The translations under genes were made by a program, and so were the position numbers. The notes below the pieces were generated by a model. The model did no database searches. It saw only the letters and a program-made list of their open reading frames with translations, and was not told the DNA's origin. Shown in pieces: positions 38,496 through 44,809 of a stretch of 49,636 bases of DNA (the stretch's first letter is position 1; each line of letters begins with the position of its first letter). This DNA is from Candidatus Moranbacteria bacterium RIFCSPLOWO2_12_FULL_48_12 (lineage in GTDB: Bacteria > Patescibacteriota > Minisyncoccia > Moranbacterales > UBA1568): NCBI GenBank assembly GCA_001784735.1, contig MFSB01000023.1, forward strand, positions 1 to 49,636, read 5' to 3'.

Positions 38496-39554
38496 CTAAA
38501 TTCCTCCTGTCGTAGTATTGGATAACGTGGGCGTACTCGGATTGACCTGGATGCTCCGCTGTAGAACGCTCTGCGTAAATGGAGCCGCCGGTCCGAGGAT
38601 GCCGGTCGCTTGCTTGAGCACGGAACCAACCTGGCTATTCACGCCACCGATCTGTCTTTGAAAATTTGCCTGCACTTGCCCTATGCCAGTCGTAACCAGT
38701 CCAGAAACCACCTTATTGGCCATAGCCGCTATAACACCAGAAGCAAGCTCTCCCGGATTGGATGCGGCTGCAATAATCTGATTGGGGAGGTTTTGGATAT
38801 TGGTTGTGGCCGCCTGGATAGCTCCGGCCGGCGCTATCACCATCCCATTTTGTTTAGCCGGCAAAAATCCCGACGAAGTGGCCTCGATTTCCGCCGCCCG
38901 CTGCTCCATTGCCAGCTTGTTCTGATAGGCCTCTTCCGCTTTCAAAGAATAGCCATACGGGTTGTTGTATGGATTAGAAAAGAAGGCGTTAAAGGCTCGG
39001 AAGTCCCCTTCTGCAAACATCGCCTGCGGACTGGCGGTATATTCCTCCAGGTTCAGCGTGCCTATCGTCCCTTTTCCGACGATCGCTTGTTTACCGACAG
39101 ACTGCAAGTACGAAGCGTAGCTCCCGCCGATTCCCCCCATGTCACCGATACCGATATAGTTCGCTTGAGCCCCCTTGCCGCGCGTCGTCAAGGTAAAAAA
39201 ACTATTCATATACAGATCGGTCCGCTGCTGCGGCCTCCGATACAAGAAATCGTCAAAGCTGGTGATGAAGCGTGCCTGCCCCCCCGCTCCCCCGCCGATG
39301 AGCTGCCCCACCTGATTGTTGAGCATCTGCACGGCCGCCATTTTGAGCGACCCGAGCAAAGCACCTTCGATCTGACGCGCAATTTGTTCCATCGTCTGCT
39401 TCATAATAGCTGCCGCCATATTCGCCCCCCATGCATCAGCGTGTGCGGTTTGAGGCATCATAAAAAACATCCCGCTAACAAAAATCATCAATAGAGAAAC
39501 TGCCGCCTTCCTTGCTGATGTTCTCGAATTTTTTCTGTTTTTAGATAAAATCAT
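38496..39554 (-). CDS. hypothetical secreted protein
   Basis: 352-aa ORF. N-terminal signal or anchor (AAVSLLMIFVSGMFFMMPQTAHA), then a Gly/Ala/Gln-rich mature region. No recognisable motif. Confidence 0.6.
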   Translation of the reverse strand: MILSKNRKNSRTSARKAAVSLLMIFVSGMFFMMPQTAHADAWGANMAAAIMKQTMEQIARQIEGALLGSLKMAAVQMLNNQVGQLIGGGAGGQARFITSFDDFLYRRPQQRTDLYMNSFFTLTTRGKGAQANYIGIGDMGGIGGSYASYLQSVGKQAIVGKGTIGTLNLEEYTASPQAMFAEGDFRAFNAFFSNPYNNPYGYSLKAEEAYQNKLAMEQRAAEIEATSSGFLPAKQNGMVIAPAGAIQAATTNIQNLPNQIIAAASNPGELASGVIAAMANKVVSGLVTTGIGQVQANFQRQIGGVNSQVGSVLKQATGILGPAAPFTQSVLQRSIQVNPSTPTLSNTTTGGI

Positions 39555-39560
39555 ATACGC

Positions 39561-40544
39561 CTACAAATTGAGCGGGATTTCTTCGATGCCGTAATCAGAT
39601 AATTTTTTCTGTACCTCATCGACAAATCCTACAACACTTCCCAGAAATCCTTGCGCCTTGGAAAGAGTAGCGATCTGCCCAAGCGGGTCGTTCTCCGTAG
39701 GCTTGAGCTCATCTTTCAATTGCACGGCATAGCGAGCCATTTTCAAAGCTTTCACATGCACATCGAGCATCTTCTCCGGCACCTCGATGTCCTTCAGTTC
39801 TTCCAGAATCTTTTCTCCCCGCTTGGACAGCTCATCAATCACACCCATATCGCCCGATGACAAAGCGGCAAGAGAATCATTGGAAAGGCTGGTCAGCATG
39901 CTCCCCAGATCGTCCTGCGTCTGCAAAGTCTGCGGCGCATTGTTGGCCAAGAGATAAGCCATAACCGTCAGATACTCAATGGCGTCCCTCCGTTCCGCTT
40001 CTGTCCGATTCTTTTCCTTGATATTTTTCGGCAGCTTTTTTATCTTGACATCTTTGGTATCGACTTCCGGAAGCGCTACCTCCTCCGTATTCCCACTAAG
40101 CGCCTTCTCCACGGAAGCGTTTATATCTTCCAACGAAATTGCTTGGCCGTTTTCATTCGTGTTCTTCAAGATGTCGGCGATTTCTTCGGAAACTTTTTGC
40201 GTCAGATTTTCTGTCTCACTCAGCACGGCAACAGAAGAGGGTTTTATTTCCTTGATAACCTTGTCCCCCGGCGCACGTTTCAGCGGATCATACCCGCTCT
40301 CTACTTCGACACCATCGCTATATCCATCGCCATCGGTATCCCGACTGAATGGATCGGTTCCATACAATTTTTCTTCATCGTTGCTCAAGCCATCCTGATC
40401 GGAATCCTGGAAAATATTTTTCGTATTCGCCGTATCGTCCGCAAATACGAAAAATCCCGCGCTCAAAATGAGCAGGCTGAAAAAAAGAAATAACGCAAGC
40501 TTCGTATTCTTCTCCGAAACATTCCAAAAAGACACCGCGCGCAT
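39561..40544 (-). CDS. secreted protein with thrombospondin type-3-like Ca-binding repeats
   Basis: Signal or anchor (LALFLFFSLLILSAGFFVFA), then DSDQDGLSNDEEKLYGTDPFSRDTDGDGYSDGVEVESGYDP. Confidence 0.65.
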   Translation of the reverse strand: MRAVSFWNVSEKNTKLALFLFFSLLILSAGFFVFADDTANTKNIFQDSDQDGLSNDEEKLYGTDPFSRDTDGDGYSDGVEVESGYDPLKRAPGDKVIKEIKPSSVAVLSETENLTQKVSEEIADILKNTNENGQAISLEDINASVEKALSGNTEEVALPEVDTKDVKIKKLPKNIKEKNRTEAERRDAIEYLTVMAYLLANNAPQTLQTQDDLGSMLTSLSNDSLAALSSGDMGVIDELSKRGEKILEELKDIEVPEKMLDVHVKALKMARYAVQLKDELKPTENDPLGQIATLSKAQGFLGSVVGFVDEVQKKLSDYGIEEIPLNL

Positions 40545-40797
40545 ACCGCTTATTTTATTTTTATGTGCTTTGATTATAACACATTTTTTCCGCCTCTGTT
40601 AACCGCTCTCCTAAAAAATTCTTCAAAAAAATCGCACTCGCTTTTTGTTTCGTAAAAAATATGCGCTCCTGATTCGCCAGCCACATTTATCAATGATGAA
40701 AACTTGCGTATTTTCTGAAATCAGAATGAAACGATGGCGCTGACAAAAAAATCGATATGCCCCACCAAAAAACTCACTCCCATATATAAATCATATT

Positions 40798-42747
40798 TTA
40801 CAATATATTTATACTTTTGTCAATACTCTTACAAAACTGCTTCTTGGAAGTAGCCAAGCCTAAAATAATCCACAACAAAAGCTGCCCCTGCTGTATATCC
40901 CAAAAGTAATGATCAAAAAGCATAATTAATATGATGACAACCAATAAGGATCGAAAAAGATAAGGCACAATAACTTTCTTGTCACTTTCTGAATACTCCA
41001 TACGCTTGGTGGCTAAAGAATGTTCCACGTGGAACATTTTTATATAACTAGACAAAGAATTGTTCCACGTGGAACATTTTTGCATTGGTAGATGGGGAAT
41101 TGTTCCACGTGGAACATTTTTACTGTTTCTCAAAAAGACAAAGGCTAAAAACCACAGAAACAAACCAATCCCGACTGAACCGGTTTCGCTGAAGATAAGC
41201 AAAAATACATTATGGATCGGCTGTAATTGCCATAATAATAACTTTTCAGTGAAAAAGTGCTGCATATCAAAGACGTATTGTCCTATACCTAAGCCTTCAA
41301 ATAAATATCCCTTAAATAAGCCTCTAATCGAATTTATATAAAATAACCGCTCTACAAATGGCTGAATGATAAAAAGCTTTAAATTAACAAAGAACACTAT
41401 CATCATCACCATAACGATTCCCCATACGATAAGTAAATGTTCCACGTGGAACATTTTGCTGAACACTCTCATTACCGATTTATAACAAATGTTCCACGTG
41501 GAACATTCAGATACATGATCGGTTGGCAAACTTTGAAATGTTCCACGTGGAACATTTTGCGCGTTACTATCCAAATGTTCCACGTGGAACATTTTGCGTA
41601 TTCCAGAAACAAGCACTATAAGCCCAATAATAAAGGCTATAATGGCAGATTTAGAAAAGCTGAAGGAAAGTGCCAACAGCTGTATAAAAATAAGCATCCT
41701 GTAGAGCCAAACACTCATAAAATGTTCCACGTGGAACATTTTAGCATTTGTAGATGGGCGGTTGTTCCACGTGGAACATTTTGTTAACAACCATGCTATA
41801 GAACTATATATTGTTCCACGTGGAACATTTGGTATATTATCGGATTGTTCCACGTGGAACATTTTTGACTTAAATATCAGCGGATAAACCATTGTTATGA
41901 GTAAAGATAGTGCCAAAAAGCCACCCAGTATGTTCGGATGAGGGAAAAATCCGTAGGATCTGATAAAAACATCACCGTTTATGACTATCTTGGCTATTCC
42001 CGGATCGTGTGCATTGAAAATACTCTCTCCCAAAATGGTTAATCCCAATGATTTTTGGCTTATAAACTGTAAAATTGCCACTATAGACTGAAAAAACCCT
42101 GAAATAATGGCTATAGTCAAGGTTATTTGTAGGATGTTCCACGTGGAACATTGTGAAAAATAACCCAGTAACTTACTTATAAATGTTCCACGTGGAACAT
42201 TTTGCACATTATTATTCAAATGTTCCACGTGGAACATTTTGGAATTGACAGATGGAAGATTGTTCCACGTGGAACATTCTTCTACTGATGCCCGCAATGT
42301 TCCACGTGGAACATTGCAAATAAGAATATAGAGATATAATAAAAACCCTTCAATAAGCCTAAAAAACGCTACCATAGCTAATGGAACACTTTCTGACCAG
42401 AAAATAGATAGCCCGGACCAAAAAATGAGGAGTGCCGGGATAAAAATAGGGAGAAGCAAATGTTCCACGTGGAACATCTTTCTCCAGTAAGATATTGACA
42501 GTATTGTAGTTTTGTTTTCTAATATATATACTCCCAAGGTCGCAACCAATAAAATATCGGAAAGATACAAAGATACGTCCAGATACTCATTGAATGAACC
42601 ATCCGGCGAAAAAACAGCGAGAACCTTGCGGATGGAGAAGGGGAAGGAAAGAAGGAAAAAGACAAATAAAATAGTATGCAAACGCACAGAAGCAAAAGCC
42701 TGCTTCAGATTGTGAGAGGATGCGTGGAATGACATAAATCGCTTCAT
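40798..42747 (-). CDS. O-antigen ligase / Wzy_C-family membrane protein carrying in-frame palindromic repeat modules
   Basis: 649-aa ORF stays open through an AT-rich region. Many TM helices. Wzy_C-like motifs FFPHPNILGGFLALSLLI and QPIHNVFLLIFSETGSVGIGLFLWFLAF. The peptides MFHVEH (x7), NVPRGT (x5) and CSTWN (x5) are the three frames of one DNA palindrome. Confidence 0.75.
   Translation of the reverse strand: MKRFMSFHASSHNLKQAFASVRLHTILFVFFLLSFPFSIRKVLAVFSPDGSFNEYLDVSLYLSDILLVATLGVYILENKTTILSISYWRKMFHVEHLLLPIFIPALLIFWSGLSIFWSESVPLAMVAFFRLIEGFLLYLYILICNVPRGTLRASVEECSTWNNLPSVNSKMFHVEHLNNNVQNVPRGTFISKLLGYFSQCSTWNILQITLTIAIISGFFQSIVAILQFISQKSLGLTILGESIFNAHDPGIAKIVINGDVFIRSYGFFPHPNILGGFLALSLLITMVYPLIFKSKMFHVEQSDNIPNVPRGTIYSSIAWLLTKCSTWNNRPSTNAKMFHVEHFMSVWLYRMLIFIQLLALSFSFSKSAIIAFIIGLIVLVSGIRKMFHVEHLDSNAQNVPRGTFQSLPTDHVSECSTWNICYKSVMRVFSKMFHVEHLLIVWGIVMVMMIVFFVNLKLFIIQPFVERLFYINSIRGLFKGYLFEGLGIGQYVFDMQHFFTEKLLLWQLQPIHNVFLLIFSETGSVGIGLFLWFLAFVFLRNSKNVPRGTIPHLPMQKCSTWNNSLSSYIKMFHVEHSLATKRMEYSESDKKVIVPYLFRSLLVVIILIMLFDHYFWDIQQGQLLLWIILGLATSKKQFCKSIDKSINIL
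41019..41120. repeat. palindrome array A (3 copies of TGTTCCACGTGGAACA)
   Basis: 16-mers start at 41021, 41061 and 41101, a 40-bp period. Confidence 0.95.
41436..41595. repeat. palindrome array B (4 copies)
   Basis: 16-mers start at 41438, 41490, 41539 and 41576. Spacings are 52, 49 and 37. Confidence 0.95.
41721..41865. repeat. palindrome array C (4 copies)
   Basis: 16-mers start at 41723, 41763, 41812 and 41846. Spacings are 40, 49 and 34. Confidence 0.95.
42133..42315. repeat. palindrome array D (5 copies)
   Basis: 16-mers start at 42135, 42184, 42221, 42261 and 42298. Spacings are 49, 37, 40 and 37. Confidence 0.95.
42459..42478. repeat. solitary copy of the palindrome
   Basis: 16-mer at 42461-42476. 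Confidence 0.95.
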
Positions 42748-42914
42748 TATAACGAAAACTTTGGATCTGTGAATGCCCCTGCCATTGACGAATCAGCCAA
42801 AGCCAGTATGATTAGAAAGTATAGCGATAGACATTTGACACAGTTGAGAGCGCTCATCCATGAGTATACCTTGTCAAAGCTGATTATCAAATAGAAGTAC
42901 GGGCGCTTTTTAAC

Positions 42915-42987
<73 letters not shown>

Positions 42988-43086
42988 CCCCGTTAGAGAA
43001 AAACATCGATCGTTTTAAGCATTCCTGAAGGTTTTCTTGAAGAGCCGCTTCTGAACCATGAATGATGTCTGTTTTTCTCTGACGGG
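42988..43086 (+). repeat. CCCCGTTA-family hairpin element, copy D
   Basis: Arms CCCCGTTAGAGAAAAACA / TGTTTTTCTCTGACGGG, 17 bp with one T:G. It starts at the nucleotide after the tRNA-Ala discriminator base. Confidence 0.8.
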
Positions 43087-43160
43087 ATCCACATCACACA
43101 ATACAAACGAGAAAAGAGTATTGGTGTGGAATACTCTTTTTTACTATCCTGAAAAAACAG

Positions 43161-43240
43161 CCCCGCCACTGTAGTTCAATGGATTAGAGCTATCCCGTCC
43201 GTCCTAAGGGAGAGATGGAGGGGTTCCTGCCCACCAGCGC
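43161..43240 (+). pseudogene. degenerate tandem duplicate of tRNA-Arg
   Basis: GTAGTTCAATGGATTAGAGCTATCCCGTCCGTCCTAAGGGAGAGATGGAGGGGTTCCTGCCCACC is collinear with the intact gene. It has an extra GTCC in the anticodon loop, and the T loop and acceptor do not pair. Confidence 0.6.
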
Positions 43241-43244
43241 GTAT

Positions 43245-43317
43245 GCCTCTATAGCTCAATGGATTAGAGCTATCCCGTCCTAAGGGAGAGATGGGGGTTC
43301 GATTCCCTCTAGGGGCA
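43245..43317 (+). tRNA. tRNA-Arg (anticodon CCT)
   Basis: GCCTCTA TA GCTC AATGGATTA GAGC T ATCCC GTCCTAA GGGAG AGAT GGGGG TTCGATT CCCTC TAGGGGC A. Confidence 0.85.
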
Positions 43318-43350
43318 CAAAAAACCACTCAAATTATTGTCTTCATCTCT

Positions 43351-43686
43351 ATGTCTTCGATGCGCATCATAAAAGTAAATGAGCTTATTCGCAAGCTTCT
43401 GGGCGAGATCATGGAACGTGAGCTCAGCCTGAAAACAGGGGTGTTTATTACGATTGCCAAGATTGACACATCGAGAGATCTCCGCTATACTCGCATGTTC
43501 ATCAGCGTCTTTCCGGAAGAGGAAACGCACTATGTCACAGAAACATTAAAAAAGGAAATCCCGAAAATCCAGAAGCACCTCTATAGCAAGCTCCATATGA
43601 AGCCTCTGCCGAAATTATCATTTGAAATAGACAAAACAGCCCAAGAAGCAGACAAAGTGGAGAAACTATTGAAAGAAATTTTTTAG
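43351..43686 (+). CDS. rbfA: ribosome-binding factor A
   Basis: RIIKVNELIRKLLGEIMERE...ITIAKIDTSRDLRYTRMFISVF. The track ORF start (43291) overlaps tRNA-Arg. ATG at 43351 is used. Confidence 0.85.
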   Translation: MSSMRIIKVNELIRKLLGEIMERELSLKTGVFITIAKIDTSRDLRYTRMFISVFPEEETHYVTETLKKEIPKIQKHLYSKLHMKPLPKLSFEIDKTAQEADKVEKLLKEIF

Positions 43687-43849
43687 CTTGTTAGAGGGAT
43701 TATTCAGGGTTATCCACACGTTATGCCCAGTGGCACAACTTAAAAAGTGAAGACTTTAATAAGCTCCAATAAAATAGCGAAGTTATAAAAATAGGGCAGC
43801 ATGATTTTGAAAATGTAGCTAATAATTGTTTTAAGTTGTTCCACTGGGT

Positions 43850-44809
43850 ATGCAAAACTTCGATTCTGAATTTCATACGCTTGAATATATCATATTAAAA
43901 TCAAAGCGAGTGCTCCTGTTCGCGCATAGCCGGCCGGATCCGGATACCGTCGGAGCCAACCTTGCCCTGACCGAATACGTCAAAAACTGTGGAAAACACG
44001 TGGATATCGCCTGTTTCGATGCTTTTCCCGATACCCTCAAGTCTTTGCGAGAGGAAATATTTTTTCATCCCGACCAACTCGATCTCGGGAGCTATGATGC
44101 CGTCATCGCTTGCGATAGCGTTGATCGCGGTTTTGATAAGATTGTGGAGGCGCTAGCGCCAGAACAAGTAGTAGTACTCATCGACCATCACCCCAATATC
44201 AACATAACCGGTGATGTTATGATGATTGATGCGGAATATTCTTCGTCGTCCGAACTGGTCTATCTTTTTTTCTCGGCGATACATACCAAAGTCACCAAGT
44301 CGATGGCGACGATGCTCCTTATGGGAATCCTCTTTGATACTGGTAGTTTTCAGCACGGAGGAGTTTCACCTCAAGTGATGGAGATTGCCGCGGATCTCGT
44401 GAGAAAAGGAGCGCCGCTTGCCAAGATTACAAAAGTTATTTTTACGAATAAGAACATCGCCGCGCTCAAACTGTGGGGAAGAGCCTTCGAGAAAGCGCAC
44501 TTCAACCAAAAAAATGGCATGCTCGTCACCGCTATCACGAAGAAGGATGTCGAAGAATGCCGCGCCTCCGTCGAAGATATTTACCAAGTCACTTCCATCT
44601 TAAGCGCCGTGCCGGATGCGAAATTCGCTCTCGTCCTTTCCGAGCGCGCTGGCAATATCGTCCGGGCCAGCCTGCGTTCGATGGAACAGCATGGCGTCGA
44701 TGTCTCCGCTATCGCAGAGCAGTTCGGCGGGGGAGGCCACAAGCTCGCCTCAGGCTTTGAGATCCATGGCAAGCTCGTCGAAACCCAGGATGGATGGATG
44801 GTGACCTAA
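43850..44809 (+). CDS. DHH-family phosphoesterase (NrnA-like oligoribonuclease/pAp phosphatase)
   Basis: LLFAHSRPDPDTVGANLAL, IDHHPN, GILFDTGSFQH and FGGGGHKLASGF (DHHA1). Confidence 0.9.
   Translation: MQNFDSEFHTLEYIILKSKRVLLFAHSRPDPDTVGANLALTEYVKNCGKHVDIACFDAFPDTLKSLREEIFFHPDQLDLGSYDAVIACDSVDRGFDKIVEALAPEQVVVLIDHHPNINITGDVMMIDAEYSSSSELVYLFFSAIHTKVTKSMATMLLMGILFDTGSFQHGGVSPQVMEIAADLVRKGAPLAKITKVIFTNKNIAALKLWGRAFEKAHFNQKNGMLVTAITKKDVEECRASVEDIYQVTSILSAVPDAKFALVLSERAGNIVRASLRSMEQHGVDVSAIAEQFGGGGHKLASGFEIHGKLVETQDGWMVT

Follow-up and report, generated by a model that had tools for sequence, protein, structure and literature searches.

In a 49,636-nucleotide stretch of the genome of Candidatus Moranbacteria bacterium RIFCSPLOWO2_12_FULL_48_12 (contig MFSB01000023.1, assembly GCA_001784735.1; the whole stretch is hereafter called the window), a gene for a putative O-antigen-ligase-like (WaaL/Wzy_C) membrane protein contains 17 exact copies of the 16-bp palindrome TGTTCCACGTGGAACA. 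Judging from their sequence, these palindromes are very likely chromosomal parS sites, i.e., the centromere sequence bound by the partitioning protein ParB, and they are referred to as parS below. We therefore consider it highly probable that this locus is a chromosomal parS centromere array embedded in a gene, and that a working gene appears to double as a centromere. This high confidence concerns the parS/ParB identity; it is much lower for the ideas of a frameshift lock and of membrane tethering discussed later. What is unusual here is the arrangement, since the parS word itself, chromosomal parS clusters, and single parS sites inside genes are already known. In the searchable literature, we found no in-frame centromere array running through the loops of one functional gene at plasmid-like density, with a rotating reading frame and conservation across a large uncultured lineage, and searches combining parS or ParB with Patescibacteria, candidate phyla radiation (CPR), Saccharibacteria, or O-antigen ligase returned nothing relevant.

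TGTTCCACGTGGAACA corresponds to the chromosomal parS consensus TGTTNCACGTGAAACA in its perfectly palindromic form, and all 17 copies match the consensus test tGTTNCACGTGAAACa (a 16-bp inverted repeat). A full-text literature search with the 16-mer returned papers solely on bacterial chromosome partitioning. A review gives the same word for parS in Pseudomonas putida and P. aeruginosa, with Myxococcus parS differing by one base, and it has served as a ParB-binding probe in published work. The repeats had been noticed in an earlier sequence-only reading of the window, which did not recognise the element as a described one; it is in fact canonical chromosomal parS, and the suggestion in that reading that the site could be protein-binding is borne out by this identity with a ParB-binding word. 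When the window was compared with Rfam, only two tRNAs passed, and sub-threshold miRNA-like matches were dismissed as artefacts of the palindromes.

An exact-match scan located the 17 copies between positions 41021 and 42476 of the window. The word did not occur in any of 100 dinucleotide-preserving shuffles (0 expected versus 17 observed), and no further copy was found in the 49.6-kb window when up to three mismatches were allowed. All 17 copies are contained in one minus-strand open reading frame (ORF) with a GC content of 36.8%, and GC content is 0.37-0.43 in the region 40001-44000 versus a window average of 0.49. The gene, its arrays, and the start positions of their parS copies are as follows, where M, N, and C stand for copies read in the frames MFHVEH, NVPRGT, and CSTWN, respectively, and TM denotes a predicted transmembrane helix:

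Host gene: 40798..42747, minus strand; 649-codon WaaL/Wzy_C-like polytopic membrane protein with about 12 predicted TM helices; all 17 parS
Solitary parS: 42461..42476, no strand; MFHVEH, residues 91-96, short TM2-TM3 loop; same position in 6/6 aligned orthologues
Array A: 42135..42313, no strand; five parS (42135, 42184, 42221, 42261, 42298), N-C-M-N-C, residues 145-204, TM4-TM5 loop
Array B: 41723..41861, no strand; four parS (41723, 41763, 41812, 41846), M-N-C-M, residues 296-343, TM6-TM7 loop
Array C: 41438..41591, no strand; four parS (41438, 41490, 41539, 41576), M-N-C-M, residues 386-438, TM8-TM9 loop
Array D: 41021..41116, no strand; three parS (41021, 41061, 41101), N-C-M, residues 544-577, TM10-TM11 loop

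The spacings within arrays are 40 and 40 bp (D), 52, 49, and 37 bp (C), 40, 49, and 34 bp (B), and 49, 37, 40, and 37 bp (A), all 12 of which are congruent to 1 modulo 3, and the translation of consecutive copies rotates from MFHVEH to NVPRGT to CSTWN and back to MFHVEH. Together, the parS modules account for 201 of the 649 residues (31%) of the protein. Our scans and recount thus agree with the sequence-only reading on the 17 identical in-frame copies found nowhere else in the window, on the spacing rule with its three-peptide rotation, and on the share of the gene, which had been put at roughly one third. The DNA between the sites can also be read in more than one frame: spacers resembling attccccatctaccaatgcaaaaa are in one frame in arrays A and B and in another in array D.

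Sites of this kind are widespread among relatives of the gene. Peptides derived from parS are present in all of the 120 best homologues (1-19 per protein, at identities down to ~30%), and site positions are kept down to ~33% protein identity. In orthologous loci, the full ORF contains 17 parS in L121 and 14 each in L122, L125, L126, and L127, and L123, a locus of a Parcubacteria-group genome at 34% identity, has nine exact copies and three with one mismatch; no parS was detected in the flanks (up to 10 kb) of these six loci. Array D is found in 6/6 orthologues, only N-C is left of array A in L127, and a single M copy represents array B in L125 and L122. To sample metagenomes, we used a query from which parS itself could not drive the search, namely a parS-free 106-residue core alignment, and obtained 80 loci. 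Their ORFs (128 kb) hold 567 parS at no more than one mismatch (452 exact) versus two in the 674 kb outside them, both at the edge of an ORF or contig, and 58 of the 61 complete ORFs have at least one parS (median 7, maximum 17). Members of the family with no more than two sites (0-2) include L174, L186, L188, L200, P0073, and P0087. Across the lineage, parS is confined to the WaaL-like gene within the 10-kb flanks sampled. The gene order is conserved as well, with rbfA, the WaaL-like gene, and a TSP3-repeat protein gene followed by ftsH, tilS, gmk, S1, a metallo-beta-lactamase-fold gene, and gyrA.

Constraint on the sites was examined in a codon alignment of six orthologues with 57-93% protein identity, in which the synonymous divergence (dS) from the window gene reaches 0.66-1.8 (none for the near-identical L126). 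Identity in the three kinds of columns was as follows:

parS: columns identical in all six, 96%; third codon positions identical, 93.5%
Core: columns identical in all six, 43%; third codon positions identical, 17%
Spacers: columns identical in all six, 20%; third codon positions identical, 32%

The parS sites are under DNA-level constraint beyond the coding constraint. The earlier suggestion that the conserved unit is the DNA and not the peptide is therefore supported by the use of three frames, by a spacer type read in different frames, and by third positions identical at 93.5% versus 17%.

As to the host gene, a protein search retrieved 419 homologues from Moranbacteria/Moraniibacteriota, the Parcubacteria group, and Patescibacteria, many of which contain PF04932 (Wzy_C). 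The homologue P0072, related to the window protein at E 7e-73, reaches 40.6 bits on this family, for which the cut-off is 31.7, and P0009 scores 25.8 bits, which is below it. Because the window protein, whole or with its modules excised, has no Pfam match at E<=1, family membership rests on the homologues and on the fold. An AlphaFold2 model based on an 18-sequence alignment (predicted TM-score 0.72) has about 12 long helices, and in a Foldseek comparison with the PDB the only significant match was WaaL (7TPG; E 2.4e-4, probability 1.00, TM-score 0.58 on the target). The protein thus resembles WaaL/Wzy_C proteins in its predicted 12-helix fold, its top structural match, and the PF04932 matches of its homologues, but it differs from them in falling below every Pfam threshold and in that the family sequence profile found no match in the PDB. 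According to this model, the host gene product is an O-antigen-ligase-like 12-helix membrane protein, as the sequence-only reading had proposed. Patescibacteria presumably have no outer membrane, so its substrate would not be a classical lipopolysaccharide O-antigen. The core of the gene has a nonsynonymous to synonymous ratio (dN/dS) of 0.13-0.17 against four orthologues, compared with 0.29-0.74 for the spacers. The gene has an open frame, is functional, and is under purifying selection.

The placement of the sites in the protein follows a simple pattern. In a hydropathy plot, the parS peptides fall between hydrophobic segments, and in the model the modules occupy four disordered loops and one short loop; the segments with a predicted local distance difference test score (pLDDT) below 50 (residues 148-203, 294-341, 387-434, and 542-586) coincide exactly with arrays A, B, C, and D, respectively. 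Both results are in line with the earlier claim that the modules lie in loops of a membrane protein whose frame is kept open. By helix count, the five parS-bearing loops are all even-numbered, and the invariant family residues R263, Y265, H270, E466, R467, and H512 are in odd-numbered loops, opposite the parS loops. From this count and the positively charged N-terminus, we infer that all five parS loops of the modelled protein face the cytoplasm. In the more distant relatives P0059, P0072, P0099, and P0104, an additional parS-derived peptide (LNVPRGT, LDVSRGT, or LNVSYGT) directly follows the invariant ER motif, in a large conserved loop (around window residues 466-480) on the predicted extracytoplasmic side, implying that tolerance of loops to such peptides is not confined to the cytoplasmic face in all lineages.

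Comparison of related genes also provides information on how the arrays change. Two substitutions and a single 138-bp indel separate L126 from the window gene; the indel leaves one copy in array C of L126, and its ends lie in the 25-bp direct repeat GCAAAATGTTCCACGTGGAACATTT. It amounts to exactly three units, gained or lost through recombination or slippage between parS copies in the same frame. Further differences between M-N-C-M and M were observed in arrays A or B of other orthologues, so that array copy number varies, by in-frame events of three units. In addition, two different loops of P0011 contain identical modules, as do two of P0012, which implies intragenic copying. The earlier proposal that modules have spread thus stands for spreading within the gene, by recombination between parS copies; as for insertion of a mobile element into genes, it does not, since the sequence is not dispersed. 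Shorter variants in the pairs P0016 versus P0011 and P0014 versus P0007 look like in-frame joins of the last parS of array B to the last of array C; such joins would remove two TM helices (~95 residues) and would reflect either genuine recombinant alleles or repeats that collapsed in assembly.

The spacing of neighbouring sites obeys a phase rule across the family. Between neighbouring motifs in homologous proteins, the frame changes by +1 in 501 cases and by +2 in 84 and stays the same in nine, and the spacings in the 80 DNA loci are 1 modulo 3 in 139 cases, 2 in 60, and 0 in 13; phase 1 dominates in 22 loci and phase 2 in 21, and no locus is dominated by phase 0. These counts come from related, non-independent sequences; even so, there are two out-of-phase types, and an in-phase one is all but absent. 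Helical phasing was rejected as the cause of the spacing, as pitches of 34, 37, 40, 49, and 52 bp, which differ from one another by multiples of three, share no helical register. One possible explanation is that loss of a unit by slippage would be harmless between in-phase neighbours, which would then decay, whereas between out-of-phase neighbours the loss of a single unit would shift the frame of a needed gene and be purged, so that the array would be shielded from erosion (a frameshift lock). Since out-of-phase single-unit loss would frameshift a selected gene, three-unit changes alone would survive, which matches the observed variants.

If the array is a centromere, ParB dimers, acting as CTP-dependent clamps, would load at each parS and form one dense partition complex; this complex would be segregated by ParA and could serve to load SMC. 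Membrane-protein loops would offer parS a tolerant safe harbour in a gene-dense genome. Whether the embedding is itself adaptive is a more doubtful matter. We tentatively put forward, as a somewhat unlikely possibility, that the frameshift lock gives a deletion-proof, high-copy centromere and that centromere DNA is in addition tethered to the membrane: coupled transcription, translation, and membrane insertion of the 12-helix protein would hold the centromere there, which could substitute for the polar anchoring proteins of other bacteria.

Several observations weigh against a gene-embedded centromere or parts of this scheme. The ParB of Moranbacteria RIFCSPLOWO2_12_FULL_48_12 is assumed. With tblastn queries for B. 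subtilis Spo0J, Soj, and DnaA, we detected no ParB, Soj/ParA, or DnaA gene in the window or its extensions, nor at distances of up to 10 kb from the gene in ~87 related loci, and exact-protein look-ups of the window's edge genes (extensions) gave no par or dnaA genes either. As a positive control, the same queries found ParB in 50 (within 8 kb) and Soj in 53 of 120 parS-pair loci of other phyla among the matches listed. As regards proximity to oriC, there is no GC-skew switch in the 49.6-kb window; gyrA is 11 kb from the WaaL-like gene and adjacent to it in L123. The confinement of parS to the gene covers the sampled flanks, and parS elsewhere on the chromosome is possible. Since one parS suffices for segregation in C. 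glutamicum, a centromere would not obviously need 17. The frameshift lock, for its part, is built on phase counts from sequences that are not independent of each other, and in another lineage (L087) three same-frame parS occur at 45-bp spacing inside dnaX. COG1475 is the Spo0J/ParB COG. Speaking indirectly for ParB in the wider group, the core-gene table of Nelson & Stegen 2015 lists COG1475 in 13/17 Parcubacteria genomes and smc in 14/17.

Among other explanations, the palindromes might form an operator or roadblock array, at which ParB, a ParB-like protein, or another palindrome-binding regulator controls the WaaL-like gene and the downstream surface-protein genes. We regard this as improbable, and equally so its corollary that the array would couple envelope glycan synthesis to the cell cycle and not serve segregation. 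Every parS is within one transcription unit, the downstream same-strand genes (for a TSP3-repeat secreted protein and a ~350-residue protein) are syntenic across the lineage, and parAB genes were not found near the gene, all of which would suit such a regulator. However, the word is exactly the chromosomal parS, whose known roles are as centromere and in SMC loading, and according to a review, the expression of genes close to parS changes little in parB mutants of B. subtilis and V. cholerae. Moreover, a regulator would not need 7 to 17 perfect sites over a whole coding region.

It is very improbable that the gene is a contingency locus, in which slippage between neighbouring parS switches a surface-glycan gene on and off and the identity with parS is secondary. 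Wzy/WaaL-type genes are classic targets of phase variation, recombination between copies does occur (L126), and the spacing of neighbours is almost never 0 modulo 3. Nevertheless, every copy-number variant observed is an in-frame event of three units, and all 61 metagenomic ORFs counted above are complete and open, with no clearly frameshifted allele and one possible case (L180). Phase variation would also leave unexplained why the repeat is exactly parS and perfect at dS above 1.

An extremely unlikely alternative is a mobile palindromic element inserted in frame, comparable to Rickettsia palindromic elements (RPE), miniature inverted-repeat transposable elements (MITE), or repetitive extragenic palindromic (REP) sequences. 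RPE are translated in frame inside functional genes, in tolerant regions of the proteins, are dispersed over many unrelated genes and intergenic regions, and are regarded as selfish. The window repeat resembles them in being palindromic DNA translated in tolerant regions, its modules share diverged homologous spacers, and copying between loops has taken place. On the other hand, it is not dispersed (no other copy in the window, and two in 674 kb of flanks versus 567 in the gene family), its positions are kept down to ~33% identity, and its core is identical to parS, a known protein-binding site. There is no transposase or RAYT domain among the ORFs of the window, where the sole recombinase is a XerC/D-like integrase 36 kb away, and among 2.9 million viral contigs a triple parS array turned up only once. 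The analogy with RPE drawn in the sequence-only reading is therefore not upheld, because the sequence is confined to one gene family and its positions are conserved. Finally, although parS peptides recur in all homologues examined, a protein-level repeat or an assembly artefact deserves virtually no credence, the former being refuted because one DNA word gives three peptides in three frames, spacers of one type occur in different frames, the third positions of codons are invariant, and the loops are predicted to be disordered, and the latter because the 17-site layout with identical spacings recurs in three independent assemblies from different samples (L210, L211, and L212), and independent assemblies with identical layouts come from ENA, JGI, and NCBI.

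With these alternatives weighed, the gene-embedded parS array may be compared with known partitioning systems. C. glutamicum has 10 parS in 35 kb, of which 9/10 are intergenic and parS1 is inside trpCF; M. xanthus has a cluster of 22 sites and B. subtilis has 10. The window shares with such clusters the same 16-bp palindrome and several copies in one chromosomal region, and a single parS within a coding sequence is known from trpCF. It differs in density, being ~20-fold denser or more (17 in 1.46 kb versus 10 in 35 kb in C. glutamicum), and in that a single ORF contains all of its parS, in frame and spread over five membrane-protein loops, with a rotating reading frame and conservation across a wide lineage; furthermore, parS of the Moranbacteria lineage are not adjacent to parAB. 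The F-plasmid centromere sopC consists of 12 tandem 43-bp repeats, each with the 16-bp SopB-binding palindrome TGGGACCACGGTCCCA, so that both have 16-bp palindromes at a pitch of ~40 bp (34-52 bp in the window, 43 bp in sopC), which in sopC nucleate a ParB-family complex. But sopC is non-coding, has a fixed unit and another palindrome, and is located beside sopAB, whereas the window spacers are variable and translated and the word is chromosomal parS. A sopC-like plasmid centromere was rejected for the window in view of its 34-52 bp spacings, diverged spacers, five blocks in an ORF, and lack of par genes nearby.

These results offer a candidate centromere for Moranbacteria/Parcubacteria, a group in which the biology of the chromosome has hardly been studied. 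They also provide a natural test of overlapping codes, in which a 16-bp protein-binding word is read in three frames and its cost and tolerance become measurable. If the frameshift lock is true, out-of-phase spacing may stabilise repeat arrays against slippage. In practical terms, translated parS can be recognised in predicted proteins by the peptides MFHVEH, NVPRGT, and CSTWN.

Close parS pairs were also sought in a genome collection with a permissive scan (two parS within 14-44 bp); in the random sample of matches listed, they are common in many phyla. Dense arrays were seen beside and inside dnaX in two low-GC metagenome-assembled genomes (27-29% GC, labelled Bacilli and Muribaculaceae). 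In one of them (L087:5922-7979), four intergenic parS precede dnaX at a pitch of exactly 44 bp, and three more, at a 45-bp pitch and in the same frame, are in the dnaX linker (...VSRGT...VPRET...VPRET...); in the other (L035:443-2293), two parS are inside dnaX. Intragenic parS arrays are thus not limited to Patescibacteria and may represent a wider, overlooked theme. The triple array among the 2.9 million viral contigs, the sole one with three perfect close parS, is at L209:14060-14151 (IMGVR_UViG_3300035698_004111), at a 38-bp pitch near a phage head-morphogenesis-like ORF, and may be the centromere of a phage or plasmid-prophage that uses host ParB.

In the gene for P0085 (L208:10275-10311), a GC-rich hairpin of 21 bp interrupts a parS in the middle, giving TGTTCCAC-GCCTGCCTGTCCGGTAGGCAG-GTGGAACA, which encodes the peptide FHACLSGRQVEQ. 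The hairpin may be a small insertion by which the parS palindrome is targeted or extended, and it would probably inactivate the site. Similar peptide inserts in relatives, FHACLPARQVEQ and VPRPPAGEAGGT (P0065, P0067, P0070, and P0084), may be of the same type in other frames.

Two genes directly follow the WaaL-like gene on its strand (minus; window 38496-40544), one for the TSP3-repeat protein (327 residues) and one for the ~350-residue protein, which has no Pfam match. Each protein has a hydrophobic, signal-like segment at its N-terminus, and synteny of both with the WaaL-like gene holds in all close relatives examined; the three genes may form an operon, e.g., with the two products being surface proteins glycosylated by the ligase-like enzyme. 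The longest rbfA ORF of the window (131 residues; 43291-43686) overlaps tRNA-Arg(CCT) (43245-43318) by 28 nucleotides, and rbfA is called at 108-111 residues in some relatives, so that the actual start codon probably lies further downstream. Genes with parS can be mishandled by gene callers and by Pfam, as the window protein without a Pfam match and the late start called in L121 illustrate. At L121:9391-11278 (GCA_049287005.1, JBAQEZ010000003.1, a 766-kb contig with the gene at ~111 kb), the deposited call (P0022, 425 residues) begins too late; an ATG further upstream opens a frame of 628 codons that includes all 17 parS, so that parS-rich 5' parts seem to mislead gene callers.

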